From IMG/VR virus record IMGVR_UViG_3300044832_000020, positions 1 to 62,107 of that record: DNA of 62,107 nt, one strand, 5' to 3'. Numbering within the stretch: the stretch's first letter is position 1; each line of letters begins with the position of its first letter. Source of the DNA: a virus. Positions 3,431-46,590 of this stretch are shown piece after piece. The notes beneath the pieces were generated by a model. That model saw only the letters and a program-made list of their open reading frames with translations. It was not told where the DNA came from and did no database searches. The translations under genes and the position numbers were made by a program.

Positions 3431-3719
3431 CGCCGGCCGCCTTCCTGGCCTCATAGGAACGGTCGGCCCGGTCCCACTCGGCCTGTAGCTCGGGGCTGGT
3501 GGGTGGGTGCTCGATCGGCCGGGGTGCCAGCCATTCGGCTCGGATCTCGGCCAGCAGCGGCAGTAGAACGTCGGCGATCCGGTCACGCTCGCTGGCCAGC
3601 AGCATCGATGTACTGGCGCTCGGGGTGGTGGTCCGGAAAATGACGTTCACCACTCGCGCGTCGTACAGCAGGTTGTCGATCCGCCGGCGGTCGATCAGCT
3701 CCTGCGGGGTGTCAGTCAT
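3420..3719 (-). CDS. hypothetical protein (99 aa)
   Basis: Start MTDTPQELI at 3719, in ATGA overlap with the 3716 stop. Confidence 0.6.
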   Translation of the reverse strand: MTDTPQELIDRRRIDNLLYDARVVNVIFRTTTPSASTSMLLASERDRIADVLLPLLAEIRAEWLAPRPIEHPPTSPELQAEWDRADRSYEARKAAGDAY

Positions 3720-4280: not shown

Positions 4281-4781
4281 TCAGCCGCCCCCGCCGGCCG
4301 GCTTGGCGGGCAGCGTGCCGCCGCCCCGGATCTCGTCCGGGGTAGGTCTTGCACCCGCAGAGCGGTTGAACGACAACTCCTCGCCCTGCTGCTCGGGCAA
4401 CACGTTGTCCTCGTACGCCAGATCCGGCGGCACCGGGGACTCGTGATCAGGCGGGAGCACCCGGGCTTCGCCCTTGGCGGCCTCAATGATCTCGGCCAGC
4501 ACCTCGGGCGCGACGTCAGCGGCAGCCGGTACCGGGTCGGGCTCGTCATCGGCGGGCAGGTCGAACGTGACCACGATCTGCCGCGTCGACGTCTGGAACT
4601 TCACCAGCGCCGCGTTCCTGATCAGGCCACTGGCGACCGCGCGCCGCTGGTGGTCGGTCAGGTTCACCCCGCCGAAGTTGAACGGGCCACCCACCCCGGC
4701 CAGGATCCGGCTGAGCAGTGCGTCCGCCAGGAACACATCGAACGCGCTCGATCGCCCGCTGGAGGATGCCTTGGCGGGCAT
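4281..4781 (-). CDS. hypothetical protein (166 aa)
   Basis: Track ORF in a GC3-rich frame; 1-nt overlap with the upstream stop. Confidence 0.6.
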   Translation of the reverse strand: MPAKASSSGRSSAFDVFLADALLSRILAGVGGPFNFGGVNLTDHQRRAVASGLIRNAALVKFQTSTRQIVVTFDLPADDEPDPVPAAADVAPEVLAEIIEAAKGEARVLPPDHESPVPPDLAYEDNVLPEQQGEELSFNRSAGARPTPDEIRGGGTLPAKPAGGGG

Positions 4782-6131: not shown

Positions 6132-6325
6132 CGGCTCATCACCTGATCTTGCGTACGGAACGCATCGCTACCGCCGCCGGCGAAGGTGACATGGACGAAC
6201 TTCGCCGGCGACGTCACGTTGAGCACACTGGTCAGCGTGAGCCAGTTGCCTTCCTTGTCGCGCACCTCCATGCCCTCCTTGAGATTGAAAGCCATCCGGT
6301 ATTTCTCGGGCCGTTTCAACTTCAC
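6128..6325 (-). CDS. hypothetical protein (65 aa)
   Basis: GTG 6325 overlaps the stop of the nuclease gene (GTGA). Confidence 0.5.
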   Translation of the reverse strand: MKLKRPEKYRMAFNLKEGMEVRDKEGNWLTLTSVLNVTSPAKFVHVTFAGGGSDAFRTQDQVMSR

Positions 6326-7442: not shown

Positions 7443-7918
7443 CAGAACAGCTCTTTCGGCGGCTCGGGTGGCCGCAGGTCGGGCGGGTCGAGCGGCATCG
7501 GCGGCTCGCGCCACGGCGGGATCGGGTCGGGGGTCTTGCGCACCCACGGCAGTCGCAGCGTCGTTGACTCGCGGTCAAGGCTGGCCATCACGTAGCCGTC
7601 TTCGAGGACCCCGCAGAGCGCCAGCGCGATCAGCGCCTTTTTCAGGTGCTGCCACTGGATCGGCTTGTCGGTCTCGACATACAGGTGGCTGTGACCCGGC
7701 GTCGAGGACGGCACCAGCCACGCCGGCACGTCGAGATCGAGCAGGAGATAGTGCCCCTCGTCGCCGTTGATCTGCGAGCTGGCCGCCTGCGCCTCATCGA
7801 GATCCCGGGTTGGGGCACGCCGGCTGTCTTGGTCGTAGCTCTGCCAGGCGACGTTGCCATACAGGTCCAATTCCTGCAGCAGCTCGATCAGCCTGGGCGG
7901 TACGTTGTCGCGGATCAT
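7442..7918 (-). CDS. hypothetical protein (158 aa)
   Basis: Track ORF in a GC3-rich frame. Confidence 0.6.
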   Translation of the reverse strand: MIRDNVPPRLIELLQELDLYGNVAWQSYDQDSRRAPTRDLDEAQAASSQINGDEGHYLLLDLDVPAWLVPSSTPGHSHLYVETDKPIQWQHLKKALIALALCGVLEDGYVMASLDRESTTLRLPWVRKTPDPIPPWREPPMPLDPPDLRPPEPPKELF

Positions 7919-8076
7919 GTTCCCGCCGTTTCGTTCCTGATCGCCGTTTCGAGCGCGGTAGCGAGAGCGCAGACAGCATCAATCGGGGTAATGCCTGCCC
8001 CGTCGTAGTTGCCGTCATCAGTGGTGGCGAACCAGCGGATAGGACTGCGCTCGTTCGGGTCGTATTCGAGTTTCAC
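7915..8076 (-). CDS. hypothetical protein (53 aa)
   Basis: Own translation: VKLEYDPNERSPIRWFATTDDGNYDG... GTGA overlap upstream and ATGA overlap downstream. Confidence 0.4.
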   Translation of the reverse strand: MKLEYDPNERSPIRWFATTDDGNYDGAGITPIDAVCALATALETAIRNETAGT

Positions 8077-8333
8077 CCGTCGACCTCTTGACTGCCGATG
8101 GGTGACACGGCGAGCGCGTGGATGGCCAGGTAGAACGCCCGCCAGGTGATCTCGGCGACCACGGCCCGGCCGTCGTCAAGGTGAATCGCCAGCGCCACGG
8201 ACGCCTTGCCTTCCAGGGTTCCGTTGGGTAGCAGGCCAACCCGGGTGACCGCGCCGTGCAGCGTCTCGGCGATCGGCGGGAGACCCTCCCACGGTGCCCG
8301 GTCGAGGTCGGGCGTGATCTGTAGGTGGGTCAC
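8073..8333 (-). CDS. hypothetical protein (86 aa)
   Basis: Track ORF with ATGA overlap with 8330. Confidence 0.6.
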   Translation of the reverse strand: MTHLQITPDLDRAPWEGLPPIAETLHGAVTRVGLLPNGTLEGKASVALAIHLDDGRAVVAEITWRAFYLAIHALAVSPIGSQEVDG

Positions 8334-13238: not shown

Positions 13239-13450
13239 CGTTCCTCCGGGTGGTTAACGAGATAGCGGGCGTACGCGGTTCTCGCGATGTGGTCCTGTAG
13301 CAGATCGAGCGCCTCGGACATTCGGCCATGCGTCAGCAAAAATTCGATCGTGGTCAGAAAGGCCGGGTCGCTGTCCTGCCGGGCAAGCCAGTCGGCCGCC
13401 GTCATCACCCCGAGGGAGATGGCGAGGTTGCCGACCGGCTTGCTGGACAT
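13235..13450 (-). CDS. hypothetical protein (71 aa)
   Basis: Track ORF with ATGA overlap. Confidence 0.55.
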   Translation of the reverse strand: MSSKPVGNLAISLGVMTAADWLARQDSDPAFLTTIEFLLTHGRMSEALDLLQDHIARTAYARYLVNHPEER

Positions 13451-13545
13451 GGCGCTATTTCGCCTTCTTCCAGGAGGGGAACTGGGGTGGAGCCGGGTGG
13501 CGCCGGGGGCTTGGGGGTTGCCGGCCCGGCGTCACCCGGGGTACT

Positions 13546-13782
13546 TCAGGCCGAGCGATCCAGGGGGTCGGTCTCGGCCGTGGGTGCGGTGTGCGTGCGG
13601 CGCTCGATCAGCGCCAGCAGGTCGGACTCGCGGATCCGAGCACGCCGGAACTTCGGGGTGCCGACGTCAACGAACGGGATCTCGCCGCTGCGGATCCACC
13701 TATCAACGACGTCATGGGAAACACCGAGCCGCTCGCCGGCTTGCTTCGGCGTGTAGAGCCGGGTTTCCGTTTCCGCAGTCAT
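13546..13782 (-). CDS. excisionase-family HTH protein (Xis, Cro-like or Cox-like early regulator)
   Basis: LYTPKQAGERLGVSHDVVDRWIRSGEIPFVDVG fits the excisionase/MerR-type winged HTH. It is the first gene of the leftward operon, divergent from the repressor. Confidence 0.7.
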   Translation of the reverse strand: MTAETETRLYTPKQAGERLGVSHDVVDRWIRSGEIPFVDVGTPKFRRARIRESDLLALIERRTHTAPTAETDPLDRSA

Positions 13783-13985
13783 TCGGTAACTCCCTTACGT
13801 GAGATCGCGTCAATCCGCAGCACGCTGCGTCGATCGGTTGCTGACCGACGGTACGCGCGGTTGGTGGATCTGACAAGCGCTTGGCCGATCTTGCTGCTGC
13901 AGGCGGTTGCAATCTGCGTCAGACATGACAAGATCGGATTACGCGCTATAACGCGCTATGACTCAGAAAGGGGCAGTAACGTGCC
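13783..13985. promoter_or_regulatory. divergent genetic-switch region
   Basis: A lower-GC 203-bp spacer between divergent HTH genes. It holds tandem ACGCGCTA boxes at 13941 and 13951, and a 9-bp inverted repeat ccgatcttg/caagatcgg at 13885..13893 and 13929..13937. Confidence 0.65.
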
Positions 13986-14312
13986 ATGATTGACGTCATG
14001 ACGGATGAAACCGGGCGACGATGGATCGCTGAGCTGGTGCAGTACGAGGTGAGCCGGCTAGGACTCACCCGCACGCGGATGCGAAAACAGTGGGGCAGCG
14101 TCGTCAGTCCCGCGACGGTTGACCGGGTACGTCGAGGCGAGGTGGTCGGCGACAGCTACCTGGCCGCGATCGGCGACCTGCTCGGGATGCCGCGTGGCTT
14201 CCTGACCTACGTCGGGGAGGGCGACGTCGCCCGGATCAAGACGTCGGGCGCCGACCCGGACCTGATCCGCTGGGTGCTCGATCTGCTCGACGCCGAAAGC
14301 GCGGCGGGCTGA
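13986..14312 (+). CDS. putative immunity repressor (XRE-like HTH, 108 aa)
   Basis: Sits upstream of the integrase and is divergent from the early operon. HTH-like segment SPATVDRVRRGE. Confidence 0.55.
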   Translation: MIDVMTDETGRRWIAELVQYEVSRLGLTRTRMRKQWGSVVSPATVDRVRRGEVVGDSYLAAIGDLLGMPRGFLTYVGEGDVARIKTSGADPDLIRWVLDLLDAESAAG

Positions 14313-14316
14313 GATC

Positions 14317-14586
14317 TTGACGGGCCGTACGCATCTAACGACTATGAGCGGCATGACCCCCACCGCGAAAGTCCTTACCGCCGCAGGATTCGGAGGGCTG
14401 GGGCTGGACCTCGGCTTCTCGCTGCTCTGTTACCGGCTGCTGATCCGCCGCGAGCACGCCGACACATCATCCTTCGACCGGGGGTACGACGCCGGCTATG
14501 ACGACCGCACCCGCGAGCTGGACCCATCACCACGCCCGGCAACGAAGCCCTGCCGGGTGATCCCGCTGCACCCGAAAACGAGCTGA
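14317..14586 (+). CDS. small membrane protein (start uncertain: TTG 14317 or ATG 14344)
   Basis: Track ORF with hydrophobic segment VLTAAGFGGLGLDLGFSLLCYRLL. Confidence 0.45.
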   Translation: MTGRTHLTTMSGMTPTAKVLTAAGFGGLGLDLGFSLLCYRLLIRREHADTSSFDRGYDAGYDDRTRELDPSPRPATKPCRVIPLHPKTS

Positions 14587-14590
14587 TCAC

Positions 14591-15772
14591 ATGGTGTCGT
14601 TCCGACGTCTCCCGGCCAGCCGGCAGAACCCGGCTGGCCGGTGGCAGGCGACTGTCGTTCTACCGATCAAGATGCCCAGCGGGAAGTCCAAGCGCGTCAC
14701 CCGGACCCACATCCTGAAAGGCGTCCTGCGCGACTGGGGCCGCGAGCTGGAGGCACGGATCGCCGCCGGCGAGTGGCACGATCCTCGCGGTGCCGAGATC
14801 ACGCTCGATCAATGGCGCGTGACCTGGCTGACCGGCCGGGTCGCGGCGTCGGCGACGCTGGCGAAGGATCAGAGCCACTGGCGCAATCACGTCCAGCCCA
14901 AGTGGGGCGGCTACCCGCTCGCCGAGATCACCCGCACCCGGCTGCATGTCTGGGTCCGGGAGATGATCGACGCCGGACTGGGGGCCTGGACGATCGCCGG
15001 CTCGGTCGCGCACTTGTCGAGCATGCTCGCCGGCGCGGTCGAGGACAAACGTTTACCAGCGAACCCGGCTGCCGGAATCAAACTGCCGCGCGCCGACCCG
15101 AAGCCGGTTTTTTACTGGACCCGGGACGAGGCGAGCGCGCTGCTGCTGGGGCTCGGCGGTGATGATGCGCTGCTGGCGGATATCGGGCTGCACACCGGGT
15201 TGCGGATCGGCGAGCTACTGGGACTGCGCCGGCGGTACGTCGACACCGAGGCCGGGCTGATCCATGTCGTCGGCGTCCAGACGCGGAAGGGGTGGCGCGA
15301 GTACCCGAAATCCCGCAAGAGCCGGCGGCCGGTGCCGGTGCCGGCGCACCTACGCGGCCAGCTCACCGACCGCGTCGACCTGCTCGGCCCGGACGATTAC
15401 GTGTTCACCCCGGATGGCGTCCATGCGTGGGATGACCGCAACTTCGCCCGCCGGGTGTTCGACCCGGCGGTGGCGGCGGCCGGGATCCGGCGCGGCACCG
15501 CTCACGACATGCGCCACACCGCCGCGAGCTGGCTGGCGCAAGGCGGCATGGACCCCGCCAAACTGCAGGCCCTGCTCGGGCACGAGAACTACAAGACGAC
15601 CCAGCAGTACGCCCACCTGGAGCCGGATGCGTTCGATGACGCGCAGGCGATCTGGGCGGCCCGGCCGGTGGATGTGCGTCGAGCGCCCCTTGACGCTGTA
15701 ACGGGTTACAGGGGTGATCGCGTACAGACAGATACCCACGATCTCCCCGAGCCGGGAGGTGAGCACCGGTGA
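14591..15772 (+). CDS. int: tyrosine integrase
   Basis: GLRIGELLGL (Arg), HDMRHTAASW (HxxR) and LLGHENYKTTQQYAHL (His and Tyr) match the tyrosine recombinase catalytic signature. Confidence 0.9.
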   Translation: MVSFRRLPASRQNPAGRWQATVVLPIKMPSGKSKRVTRTHILKGVLRDWGRELEARIAAGEWHDPRGAEITLDQWRVTWLTGRVAASATLAKDQSHWRNHVQPKWGGYPLAEITRTRLHVWVREMIDAGLGAWTIAGSVAHLSSMLAGAVEDKRLPANPAAGIKLPRADPKPVFYWTRDEASALLLGLGGDDALLADIGLHTGLRIGELLGLRRRYVDTEAGLIHVVGVQTRKGWREYPKSRKSRRPVPVPAHLRGQLTDRVDLLGPDDYVFTPDGVHAWDDRNFARRVFDPAVAAAGIRRGTAHDMRHTAASWLAQGGMDPAKLQALLGHENYKTTQQYAHLEPDAFDDAQAIWAARPVDVRRAPLDAVTGYRGDRVQTDTHDLPEPGGEHR

Positions 15773-15820
15773 CGGCCCGTGATGTACCGTCGTAACAATA
15801 GAGGCGAAAGGATTGTGACG

Positions 15821-16120
15821 ATGGCGAAGAAGGGCAGCACCCGCCCGCACCGTGTCGAGTACACCTGGACCGGCACGGGCATCAAGAGTACGGAGACGTT
15901 CGAGACCACCGAGCGCGCGGCGGATTTCATGCGGGAGATGGCCGAGCGCGCGACACGAAACGGGTCAGGTTTGGAACTTCGCCGGCTGCTGCGAATCGCC
16001 GCCGCCGGCGGGGGTAGCCGATTTCTCACGCAAGAGACCAAGACGATCGAGGCCGATGCCGCCACCGCCGCCCGGTGGCAGGCCGAGCGGTTCCCGCGCG
16101 GCTATGACGAACGCGACTAA
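15821..16120 (+). CDS. hypothetical protein (99 aa) between int and attP
   Basis: ATG 15821 follows the 20-nt leader agaggcgaaaggattgtgac, which contains an SD. Confidence 0.55.
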   Translation: MAKKGSTRPHRVEYTWTGTGIKSTETFETTERAADFMREMAERATRNGSGLELRRLLRIAAAGGGSRFLTQETKTIEADAATAARWQAERFPRGYDERD

Positions 16121-16148
16121 ACATCAGAGGCGAAAGGATTGTGACACG

Positions 16149-16478
16149 ATGACTACCGACTGGTCAGACACAGGAAGCGGTGGCGGCTACCAACAGCCGA
16201 CCGCTGCTGAGCACTTCGCGTGGGCACGCGCTCGCGCAATGGAGTACGTCGAGCGGAACGAGGCAGGCAACGCGATGGCGTCGTTCGTGCAGGATCTGGG
16301 GACCCACGAGGGAACTCGCGAGATCCTGCACGCCGACCTGTTGGGGTTGTTCGCCGGCGAGATCTTGATGCACGGCGCGCGTGGCGCTCGCAGCTTCATC
16401 GAGGGGCTGGCCGGGCCGCCGGCCGACGTGCCGTGGCATGACATGCGCACACCCAGCGAGGTGGCCGAGGAGCGCTGA
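16149..16478 (+). CDS. hypothetical protein (109 aa) between int and attP
   Basis: ATG 16149 follows an identical 20-nt leader (16126..16145). Confidence 0.55.
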   Translation: MTTDWSDTGSGGGYQQPTAAEHFAWARARAMEYVERNEAGNAMASFVQDLGTHEGTREILHADLLGLFAGEILMHGARGARSFIEGLAGPPADVPWHDMRTPSEVAEER

Positions 16479-16522
16479 CCTCCCAGCTCCGTCCGCATGG
16501 CGTCCGCACGGACGCAGAAAAC

Positions 16523-16553
16523 GAGCCCCTCCCGCTGGCAGCGGGAGGGGCTC
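16523..16553 (+). terminator. 13-bp perfect stem-loop terminator after the lysogeny operon
   Basis: gagcccctcccgc tggca gcgggaggggctc read directly. Confidence 0.7.
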
Positions 16554-16582
16554 AATCGTGCTCTGACCTGCGGTTATACCTC

Positions 16583-16631
16583 GGTGGAGCTTAGGGGATT
16601 CGAACCCCTGACCTCTTCCATGCCATGGAAG
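16583..16631 (-). other. tRNA 3-prime fragment (anticodon arm, GGC anticodon, Ala-like, through T arm and acceptor 3-prime strand); likely attP core
   Basis: Reverse complement reads cttcc atggcat ggaag aggtc agggg ttcgaat cccct aagctcc a cc. No D arm or 5-prime acceptor strand lies upstream. Confidence 0.65.
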
Positions 16632-16837
16632 CGAAAGGCCCTGGTCAGTAAGGGGTTTGCGGCTCTGACCTGCGGTTATATAACGCGGTAATACGCGCTA
16701 AAACGCAACAGAATGCCGGGTCCGTCCGCACGGCGTCCGCACGGAATAGGGGCCACAGGCTACGATCGCAAACGAGATCTCGCCGCCGGCGACCACGGGG
16801 GCCACCGGCGGCGAGATCTTATCGGGGGATCTTCAGA

Positions 16838-17017
16838 CTACCGGCGCCGACGTCGCGAGATCAGCAACACGCCGACCGCCACCGCCGGGATCGCCAGCAG
16901 CAGCGGGCAGCTCTTACCCTTCGCCGGCGGTTTGCCGCCGGCGCCGAGCCAGTCGATCAGTGCGTCGTCCTGGTCCTCGTCCCGTGGCTTGAACCACGGC
17001 TCATGCTTCGCCATCAT
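16838..17017 (-). CDS. tail-anchored small membrane protein (59 aa)
   Basis: MMAKHEPWFKPRDEDQDD...CPLLLAIPAVAVGVLLISRRRRR. GGAGG lies upstream of the ATG pair at 17017/17014. Confidence 0.5.
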   Translation of the reverse strand: MMAKHEPWFKPRDEDQDDALIDWLGAGGKPPAKGKSCPLLLAIPAVAVGVLLISRRRRR

Positions 17018-17063
17018 CGCCTCCGCTGACCAGCGTAACGTCAATGGCGTCTTGACAGTGAAG

Positions 17064-17225
17064 TTACGGCAAGACCTTCTGCCACGCCTGGATCATGAAC
17101 ACGGCAAAGCAGAGCGCCAGGCCGAGTGCGATCCAGTTGATCCGTGCCACCACGCCGAACGCTGCCAGCACGAAACAGATCACGCCGAGCAGGAACAGGA
17201 AGGCGAACAAAACCAAGAGTCCCAT
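17064..17225 (-). CDS. small two-helix membrane protein (53 aa)
   Basis: Own translation: MGLLVLFAFLFLLGVICFVLAAFGVVARINWIALGLALCFAVFMIQAWQKVLP. Strong SD gaggaggtgagtccgATG. Below the track cutoff. Confidence 0.55.
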   Translation of the reverse strand: MGLLVLFAFLFLLGVICFVLAAFGVVARINWIALGLALCFAVFMIQAWQKVLP

Positions 17226-46517: not shown

Positions 46518-46590
46518 GGGTCTATAGCTCAATGGCAGAGCAGGCCATCTATATGCGCTTGGCGCCGGTTCGATTCCGGCTAGATCCACC
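46518..46590 (+). tRNA. tRNA-like gene (73 nt) with canonical acceptor, D and T arms but an irregular anticodon arm; identity unresolved (loop tctatat)
   Basis: gggtcta ta gctc aatggca gagc a ggcca tctatat gcgct tggc gccgg ttcgatt ccggc tagatcc a. Only 3 of 5 anticodon-stem pairs form. Confidence 0.55.

Follow-up and report, generated by a model that had tools for sequence, protein, structure and literature searches.

The window, by which we mean the whole stretch of 62,107 nucleotides that was analysed, is the GC-rich (66%) genome of a temperate phage in its unintegrated form, and it carries the same short direct repeat, or box, phased at 10 bp, at two loci: the intergenic region of the lysis-lysogeny switch and attP. 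The recurrence of the boxes at these two loci is real and not a product of chance. As the best reading, it suggests an actinophage protein that would act, in the manner of Cox and Apl, both as an excisionase and as a regulator of the switch, in this case between back-to-back promoters. We consider it rather probable that the boxes are the binding sites of a 78-aa HTH_17 protein, encoded at the start of the leftward early operon, in the role of recombination directionality factor. The protein that binds the boxes, the positions of the promoters and the direction of the regulatory effect are all inferred from the sequence. The features on which the argument is built are collected in Table 1.

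Table 1. Features of the switch, the attP region and the genes considered here (positions in the window).
Feature	Position	Strand	Details
78-aa HTH_17 gene	13546..13782	-	Xis/MerR-like winged helix; first gene of the leftward early operon
Intergenic switch	13783..13985		203 bp
Predicted early promoter P_L	13848..13876	-	TTGTCA-17-TACCGT
24-bp palindrome	13867..13890	.	GATCTGACAAGCGCTTGGCCGATC; covers the -35 of P_L
Switch boxes	13941..13968	+	ACGCGCTA 13941-13948; ACGCGCTA 13951-13958; weak ACTCAGAA at 13961; 10-bp phasing
108-aa repressor-like gene	13986..14312	+	First gene of the rightward operon, which ends with int
80-aa gene	14344..14586	+	
Tyrosine integrase (int)	14591..15772	+	N-terminal arm-binding-type region; Pfam Phage_integrase 1.3e-22
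Two small genes	15821..16120 and 16149..16478	+	
Arm-type repeats A	16483..16512	+	CGTCCGCATGG CGTCCGCACGG; int-proximal arm
Hairpin	16523..16553	.	Perfect 15-bp stem; terminator for the tRNA 3' end and the rightward operon
B, 19-bp repeat	16560..16578	+	GCTCTGACCTGCGGTTATA; flanks the core
attP core	16583..16633	-	51 nt, an exact match to the 3' part of Kribbella tRNA-Ala(GGC)
B'	16662..16680	+	Identical to B; adjoins the boxes on their left
attP boxes	16683..16720	+	ACGCGGTA 16683-16690; ACGCGCTA 16693-16700; ACGCAACA 16703-16710; possible fourth ATGCCGGG 16713
Arm-type repeats A'	16716..16745	+	CGTCCGCACGG twice; int-distal arm
Leftward late genes	from 16838	-	
Second HTH gene, 91 aa	51877..52152		PHROG 597 'DNA binding protein', 9e-21

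The box stretch reads TACGCGCTATAACGCGCTATGACTCAG at the switch and ATAACGCGGTAATACGCGCTAAAACGCAACAG in attP. All boxes lie on the + strand with a spacing of exactly 10 bp, the third box is the weak one at both loci (13961 and 16703), and the switch array ends 18 nt 5' of the ATG of the repressor-like gene. The spacers between the boxes differ between the two loci (TA/TG at the switch versus AT/AA in attP), which argues that the boxes are a repeated motif and not a duplicated or copied segment. An earlier note on this DNA had reported the boxes at 13941 and 13951 in the divergent region and their recurrence at 16683, 16693 and, weakly, 16703, in each case with 10-bp phasing, and had found no further exact copy; we could confirm these positions and the phasing, and the exact 8-mer ACGCGCTA indeed has three copies in the 62 kb, every one of them at the switch or in attP.

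Taken as a single word, the 8-mer does not reach significance by its count (1.67 copies expected; at least three in 24 of 100 shuffles), and the same is true of the longest exact word common to the switch and attP regions, which is 9 nt long (89 of 300 shuffles). Listing every 8-mer common to the switch and the downstream regions was too noisy to be used. As the statistic of the longest shared word is insensitive and the 9-mer of the window was not significant by it, we substituted a test of the tandem unit ACGCGCTA-N2-ACGCGCTA, that is ACGCGCTANNACGCGCTA, against 100 dinucleotide-preserving shuffles. With at most one mismatch this unit is found in the whole window at 13941 and 16683 only, and none of the 100 shuffles contained any match; with at most three mismatches the whole window gives three matches only, at 13941, 16683 and the overlapping 16693. 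Two other readings of the box itself were rejected. A palindromic reading, based on its self-complementary CGCG, fits less well than the direct-repeat register (7/10 versus 9/10) and is disfavoured by the related contig L162, the boxes of which retain ACGC..CTA yet lose the self-complementary CGCG. The boxes are not convincing as -10 elements either, having no TANNNT inside them, and the consensus scan yields no promoter.

The second box set had been assigned by the earlier note to an attP region, and this attP proved to be a genuine one, spanning 16483..16745, with arm repeats, a tRNA core and the boxes on one arm. In the window it shows the features of a lambda-type attP, that is, arm repeats on both arms and a core corresponding to the host target. 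The repeats A and A' are tandem 11-mers (CGTCCGCAYGG) present on both arms, 233 bp apart, and B and B' bracket the core, beside which CTGACCWGC is kept in related attPs. The part of tRNA-Ala(GGC) covered by the core runs from the anticodon stem to ...CCACC; an exact 46-mer of it was found in 108 genome stretches, the majority of which are from Kribbella, ARAGORN called a tRNA-Ala(ggc) in locus L183, and homologues of the integrase adjoin tRNA genes in prophages. Rfam gave for the tRNA fragment a weak and partial match to the tmRNA clan, and it was the exact matching to Kribbella tRNA-Ala that settled its identity. The phage host is a soil actinobacterium, probably Kribbella. Boxes are present in just one of the arms, where they fall between B' and A', at the side of the core that corresponds to the tRNA 5' end. 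Since the sites of Xis, Cox and Apl lie on one att arm, between the core and the arm-type sites (PMC7498355), the attP boxes are in the usual position of excisionase sites.

At the switch, the lytic and lysogenic genes are divergent, and P_L points away from the repressor gene; leftward of the 78-aa gene there are many small genes. A consensus promoter scanner found no promoter in the window. Using a looser pattern (TTGNNN, 16-19 nt, TANNNT), we obtained a sole match in the 203-bp intergenic region, the one at 13848-13876, and exactly one match, always leftward and in a similar place, was present in each of ten switches (the window and nine related ones); we take this match as the putative leftward early promoter P_L. 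Neither the consensus scanner nor the looser pattern gave a rightward promoter, so that placing the boxes over the lysogenic promoter is a guess from position. The switch boxes immediately precede the ribosome-binding site of the 108-aa gene, at 65-90 bp upstream of the P_L -35, and they are thus apparently placed to affect rightward transcription. The palindrome over the -35 of P_L, to which an additional half-site (CAAGATCGG at 13929-13937) can be added, is unrelated in sequence to the boxes. It is likely to be the operator of the 108-aa repressor-like protein, which would therefore have a plausible operator of its own, separate from the boxes.

The 78-aa protein matches Pfam HTH_17 (47.1 bits, 2.8e-12, for a cut-off of 27) and PHROG 66, described as 'excisionase and transcriptional regulator', and its gene starts 0.8 kb upstream of int and faces the repressor-int operon. 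The view that 13546..13782 is an excisionase-family HTH gene and the first of the leftward operon, already put forward in the earlier note, is borne out by these two matches and by the conserved leftward promoter; among the next ten leftward genes, none has a recognisable DNA-binding domain. Compared with the PDB, the profile of the 78-aa family retrieved BldC (1.6e-5), Pukovnik Xis (4e-4) and P2 Cox (4lhf; E about 2.3e-3 over 35 residues). The AF2 model of the protein (pLDDT 79) consists of two helices and a beta wing. It matches BldC and Pukovnik Xis with a target-normalised TM (TMt) of 0.76-0.86 and an rmsd of 1.2-1.8 A (for Pukovnik Xis, 4j2n, 1.2-1.6 A over 50 residues), the excisionase RdfS with a TMt of 0.63-0.66 and P2 Cox, by Foldseek, with a TMt of 0.57 and an rmsd of 2.6. 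According to this model, BldC and Pukovnik Xis are the nearer neighbours of the protein and P2 Cox is a more distant one, all three being proteins that bind head-to-tail direct repeats or have the build for it. Cooperative binding to direct repeats has been described for BldC, Pukovnik Xis, Apl and D29 Gp36, and arrays of three to five such units, set head to tail every 10 bp, are characteristic of proteins of the Xis/BldC type (PMC7498355, PMC12266134).

We then looked at phages carrying the same module. A blastn search of positions 13400-17100 against INPHARED returned the tRNA-like piece only and no annotated relative, and a search of the viral contig collection with the single Int protein found no relative. 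Scanning metagenomes with an Int alignment gave mostly distant Int proteins, the close ones being reached through exact-protein look-ups; the contigs with the same module were gathered by such look-ups together with collection scans. Synteny between the HTH_17 gene and the switch is kept in all lineages, including L162, L163, L168, L169 and L176, and phased boxes precede the repressor-like gene, at the same spot, in L168, L162, L163 and L164-166. Boxes of the window type are present at the switches of L168 (CACGCGCTAA, GACGCGCTGC and AGTGCGCTGT), L162 (ACGCTCTA, ACGCACTG and CCGCGCTA) and L163 (ACGCACTA). These three contigs stop before attP, and the attP set of the window type thus comes from the window alone.

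The sharing of boxes between switch and attP recurs, with lineage-specific sequences, in two other lineages. The first is L169, the contig of which holds both loci and has boxes of the type TGCGTCA. Its attP is composed of the same parts in the same order, with an identical A-to-A' spacing of 233 bp, and between B' and A' it reads TTGCGTCATG TTGCATCATG. Allowing two mismatches at most, TGCGTCA-N3-TGCGTCA has four matches in L169, three at the switch and one in attP, for 0.04 expected. In the third lineage (L164, L165, L166 and L176), tandem TGTGTCA is found at the switch and in attP only. The exact sequence shared by the two loci is 16 nt long in L164 and 15 nt in L165, and only 8-9 nt in L166; at the one box position that differs between L164 and L165 (A versus C), each phage has the same base at both loci. 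The attP of this group is inverted relative to int, the order of its parts with respect to the tRNA fragment being unchanged. The orientation of the boxes is conserved, following the repressor gene at the switch and antiparallel to the tRNA in attP, and it holds despite this inversion. Such a conserved orientation in a common frame indicates that the box belongs to attP and not to a flanking gene. Altogether, nine related attPs have phased boxes at the corresponding place, with tandem 11-mers on both arms throughout, and in 10/10 attPs the boxes are on one arm only. Two further loci should be mentioned: L173, which has the same repressor family and two HTH_17 genes, gave no clear switch/attP sharing, and L115 was rejected as support because its switch-shared motifs are in a promoter-like module downstream of int and not in a recognisable attP.

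A natural contrast is provided by L087, L119, L082 and L100, which are more distant by their Int but have intact attPs built on the same plan. The position and orientation of the phased boxes in their attPs are also the same, with sequences such as TGTCCA and TGGGTCC, and their lytic operon opens with an XRE-type gene, the Xis-like gene following in second place or further down. In these four phages the tandem boxes are confined to attP, with none at the switch. This pattern indicates that attP boxes go with the Xis/Int system in general, and, among the phages compared, boxes are present at the switch only where an Xis-like gene heads the lytic operon and there is no Cro-type gene. The four phages are also without the family of the 108-aa repressor (rep108), and the contrast consequently has two sides: the attP boxes are independent of rep108, and the comparison is silent on which protein binds the boxes at the switch.

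Binding by the 78-aa protein is favoured on four grounds: the head-to-tail 10-bp arrays fit the documented binding mode of its fold class, the attP boxes are where an excisionase would bind, the palindrome offers the repressor another candidate operator in a better place, and the arm-type repeats already account for Int. The box type also follows the recognition helix of the 78-aa family, VS.D(V/T)(V/I)DR going with ACGCnCTA boxes (the window, L168, L162 and L163) and VS(R/K)..(V/I)YR with TG(C/T)GTCA or CGTCTCA boxes (L169, L164 and L115). The Cox-type dual role proposed in the earlier note gains support in this way from the gene order, the attP, the recurrence in other lineages and the contrast group. 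Four other explanations were weighed against it.

The one that survives best, although we regard it as unlikely, is that the 108-aa repressor-like protein uses the boxes as its operators, for autoregulation at the switch and, on the attR arm in lysogens, for another function such as blocking excision. This protein has no Pfam or PHROG match. Its AF2 model (pLDDT 88.6) shows an XRE/cI-type HTH with extra C-terminal helices, and the best fold matches are SaPI Stl, ClgR, BldD and the N-terminal domain of lambda cI, with Foldseek probabilities of 0.95-0.99 but E-values of 0.15 or worse. The rep108 family is small (36 proteins); searching the genome collection with the repressor alignment found nothing, and the homologues in L174 and L175, being in a non-phage context, were left out. 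Several observations would agree with the repressor as the binder, as the switch boxes are directly upstream of its gene and switch/attP sharing was seen only in phages carrying rep108. The HTH of the repressor, too, differs between the groups of box type; since both HTH sequences track the box groups, covariation cannot separate the Xis-like protein from the repressor. On the other hand, XRE/cI-type proteins, to which the fold of the 108-aa protein belongs, usually bind palindromes. There is one, 24 bp long and unlike the boxes, at the -35 of P_L, where the repressor must act, and P_L of the window has no tandem boxes. Moreover, phased attP boxes are in the same position in the relatives without rep108, and head-to-tail arrays of three to five units at 10 bp are of the Xis/BldC type (PMC7498355, PMC12266134).

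Slightly less probable still is that another DNA-binding protein of the phage binds both box sets and is the true directionality factor or regulator of the switch, one candidate being the 91-aa HTH protein. The earlier note had listed it as a second excisionase-type HTH gene complicating the assignment. That it is an HTH gene was upheld, and the excisionase type was not: its best family is PHROG 597, its similarity to PHROG 66 amounts to 6.5e-4 only, and the Pfam MerR match is below threshold. This weak similarity to PHROG 66 and to MerR HTH models is what can be said for the 91-aa protein, together with the fact that most related contigs are too short to show its co-occurrence with boxes. Against it, the gene is 35 kb from the lysogeny module, and a scan of the viral contig collection with the protein found no relative, weak matches being present in the fetched loci only; the HTH_17 gene, by contrast, accompanies the switch in every lineage. 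The 91-aa protein is therefore a weaker candidate than the product of 13546..13782.

It is improbable that the boxes are a second class of arm-type sites for Int, with the switch copies serving an autoregulation of Int as in P4. For P4, Int has been reported to autoregulate its own operon. Arm-type sites are likewise short tandem direct repeats, and the switch boxes are upstream of an operon that ends with int, both of which would suit such a role. However, the CGTCCGCAYGG 11-mer, found on both arms and with its spacing kept in L169, is the obvious arm-type site, the confinement of the boxes to one arm in all ten attPs is not in favour of a further class, and the contrast phages, with related integrases and attP boxes, have none at the switch. 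Finally, coincidence between two AT-richer intergenic regions that happen to share a CGCG-containing word, with which the non-significant 8-mer count and 9-nt shared word would be compatible, is very hard to credit given a tandem unit that is unique to the two loci (0/100 shuffles) and a design that L169 and the L164 group repeat with sequences of their own.

If the 78-aa protein is the one that binds the boxes, the following sequence of events can be proposed. Upon induction or infection, P_L would fire and the 78-aa protein would be its first product. Monomers of the protein would then bind head to tail to the 10-bp-phased boxes at two places. On the arm derived from attP, which in the lysogen belongs to the junction far from int, binding between the core and the arm-type Int sites would bend the DNA; on the bent arm, Int could assemble the excisive complex, and integration would be disfavoured. 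At 13941-13968, binding directly ahead of the repressor-like gene's ribosome-binding site would shut off the rightward repressor-int operon. Such a switch-off would correspond to the job of Cro in lambda and of Cox and Apl in P2 and 186.

To our knowledge, the coupling of excision and lysogeny through one protein has so far been known from P2-like phages, P4 and a few Gram-negative elements. Our search of the actinophage literature found no description of such an arrangement. The case that comes nearest is D29 Gp36 (2025), the only actinophage precedent to turn up of an Xis homologue with a regulatory role, and it has no link to attP. We would tentatively propose that, in a clade of Kribbella/Propionibacteriales phages without Cro, an HTH_17 excisionase was recruited as the anti-repressor arm of the switch and that the Cox/Apl logic of P2 and 186 was thereby reinvented with a different winged-helix member and back-to-back promoters. 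As the sister phages retain an XRE-type first gene and have boxes in attP only, the passage from one state to the other, 'cro plus xis' or 'xis only', could be reconstructed and tested. Should the reading be true, the same design would have evolved or persisted in actinobacterial siphophages by means of the HTH_17 Xis family, and the 'excise' genes found at the Cro position in many actinophages may be annotated too narrowly. It would also offer three cognate pairs of box and protein (ACGCGCTA, TGCGTCA and TGTGTCA) with a natural contrast group and precisely predicted sites, and the attP/Int/Xis set for Kribbella tRNA-Ala(GGC) could serve as an integration tool.

Several known systems can be compared with the one proposed here. 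The excisionases of Pukovnik and L5 are of the same Pfam family and fold as the 78-aa protein, their tandem attP sites are likewise between the core and the arm-type sites, and their partner is also a tyrosine integrase targeting a tRNA gene. As far as we know, they are not at the head of a lytic operon and are not known to share sites with an immunity switch; the immunity systems of L5 and Pukovnik are separate ones. Lambda Cro resembles the 78-aa protein in being the product of the first gene of an early operon facing the repressor gene, with a presumed shut-off of repressor synthesis. It differs by its fold and by acting on palindromic operators that it shares with the repressor, whereas the boxes are direct repeats and are also present in attP; the present phages depart from the Cro type further in that their relatives with an XRE-type first gene are without boxes at the switch.

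D29 Gp36 and Streptomyces BldC are Xis/MerR-like winged-helix proteins; their monomers form oligomers along direct repeats, with repression or modulation of transcription as the outcome, and in the case of Gp36, a homologue of Xis, the repeats are GC-rich and the genes repressed are those of the phage (PMC12266134). The 78-aa protein would be of the same kind, BldC being the best structural match of its model at a target-normalised TM of 0.77-0.86. D29 is a lytic phage, unlike the phage described here, and no part in recombination was demonstrated for Gp36; BldC, for its part, regulates development in the cell, and neither of the two couples attP to a lysogeny switch.

Such coupling is the property of 186 Apl, P2/HP1 Cox and P4 Vis, directionality factors that also regulate the lysis-lysogeny switch, and the direct repeats of Cox and Apl, one helical turn apart, are in one att arm and at the switch, 'of similar sequence and arrangement' (PMC7498355; PMC3936717). 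The phage of the window appears to share with them phased direct repeats in one att arm and at the switch, and a repressor with an operator that is its own and different, in our case the candidate palindrome. As in P2 and 186, an excisionase-family gene faces the repressor-int operon, and, as with Cox and Apl, a small HTH/winged-helix DNA-binding protein is encoded at the start of the leftward operon. The differences from P2 and 186 are in the promoters, back-to-back here and face-to-face there, and in the actinobacterial host and siphovirus-like genome layout; 186 has seven boxes between pR and pL, compared with two or three beside the repressor gene here. The 78-aa protein differs from P2 Cox in being of the HTH_17/MerR-like Xis family, to which Cox is only distantly related by profile (E about 2.3e-3) and by fold (TM 0.57). 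What the comparison suggests for the 78-aa protein is thus a Cox/Apl-like way of acting more than a place in the Cox/Apl sequence family.

The leftward and rightward sides of the switch, the intergenic region between the Xis-like gene and the gene for the 108-aa repressor-like protein, differ in promoter content. A search for TTGNNN-N17/18-TANNNT returned one match in each of ten related intergenic switches (13848-13876 (-) in the window, our predicted P_L, and nine others), in every case pointing left and placed about 60 nt upstream of the Xis-like gene, and the same search found no rightward consensus promoter in any of the ten, which is why the promoter serving repressor and integrase (int) may be weak or activator-dependent. 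A 24-bp near-perfect palindrome overlies the -35 of P_L and a third half-site abuts the phased boxes (see the table); together these are likely to be the operator of the repressor-like protein. We also noted a lone box-like 8-mer, ACGCGCGG (13853-13860, two mismatches to the box), which has no phased partner and lies in the spacer of P_L, adjoining its -10; it could be a weak site through which the box-binding protein acts on the lytic promoter too. Homologues of the 108-aa protein (46% identity) also occur outside a phage context, in the loci L174 and L175, where their neighbours are large secreted-protein genes and a gene of the MarR family.

Two related loci fit this arrangement less cleanly. 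L173 has a repressor of the same family as the window but carries two HTH_17 genes (3503-3715 and 4332-4526), with its integrase on the opposite strand and an attP at about 7787-8094. No boxes clearly common to its switch and its attP were seen; the paralogues may divide the switch and excision roles. In L115, a strong promoter-like element, TTGACG-17-TACAGT, lies downstream of int and shares with the switch the motif GTCTCATG(AAGTGT), followed by GACGCTCT boxes that resemble the box preceding the repressor gene. This downstream module, near which no tRNA-like attP core could be recognised, appears to be a duplication of the whole regulatory module.

Between int and attP, both small genes of the window are preceded by a copy of the 26-nt repeat AACA(A/T)(T/C)AGAGGCGAAAGGATTGTGAC, and the same sequence stands ahead of the homologue in the related locus L162; it may represent a common translation-initiation or regulatory element. 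The phage also encodes a tRNA of its own (see the table).

The window attP core (16583-16633) is identical to the 3' 51 nt of tRNA-Ala(GGC), found in L183 at 6205-6280. A 46-mer of this core was found in 108 genome stretches, mostly of Kribbella, the others belonging to further Propionibacteriales and, in a few cases, to unrelated MAGs, and this distribution points to Kribbella or a near relative as the probable host. L164 targets the same tRNA; in L165, L166 and L176 the anticodon loop of the target tRNA is TAC. Regardless of the target tRNA, all related attPs carry beside the core the motif CTGACC(T/A)GC, central to the 19-bp repeat of the window; whether its copies are direct or inverted varies among the phages. 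The repeat resembles the variable-loop/T-stem stretch of the tRNA itself (CTGACCTC) and may be an additional protein site, at which Int or some host factor would bind. Comparison of the attPs indicated that in some lineages the entire site is inverted relative to int with the order of its internal parts kept, so that their prophages would have the box-bearing arm beside int and not at the far end.

Coordinates of features in the window and in related loci
Feature	Locus	Position	Remark
Palindrome GATCTGACAAGCGCTTGGCCGATC, 24 bp, near-perfect	window	13867-13890	over -35 of predicted P_L
Third half-site CAAGATCGG	window	13929-13937	abuts boxes
26-nt repeat	window	15794-15819, 16120-16145	copies 92% identical
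19-bp exact direct repeat GCTCTGACCTGCGGTTATA	window	16560-16578, 16662-16680	either side of tRNA-derived core
tRNA-Ile, anticodon TAT	window	46518-46590	phage-encoded
attP, orientation	window	16483-16745	
attP, orientation	L164	9683-9935	compared with window
attP, orientation	L165	9006-9255	compared with window
attP, orientation	L166	9781-10030	compared with window
attP, orientation	L176	6190-6445	compared with window
attP, orientation	L087	6150-6430	compared with window
Core-flanking motif	L169	3668/3761	
Core-flanking motif	L176	about 6279/6349	
Core-flanking motif	L173	about 7850/7930	
Core-flanking motif	L164	about 9785	
Core-flanking motif	L087	about 6268	
Core-flanking motif	L100	about 6320/6340	
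Regulatory regions compared	L115	3464-3620, 6184-6276
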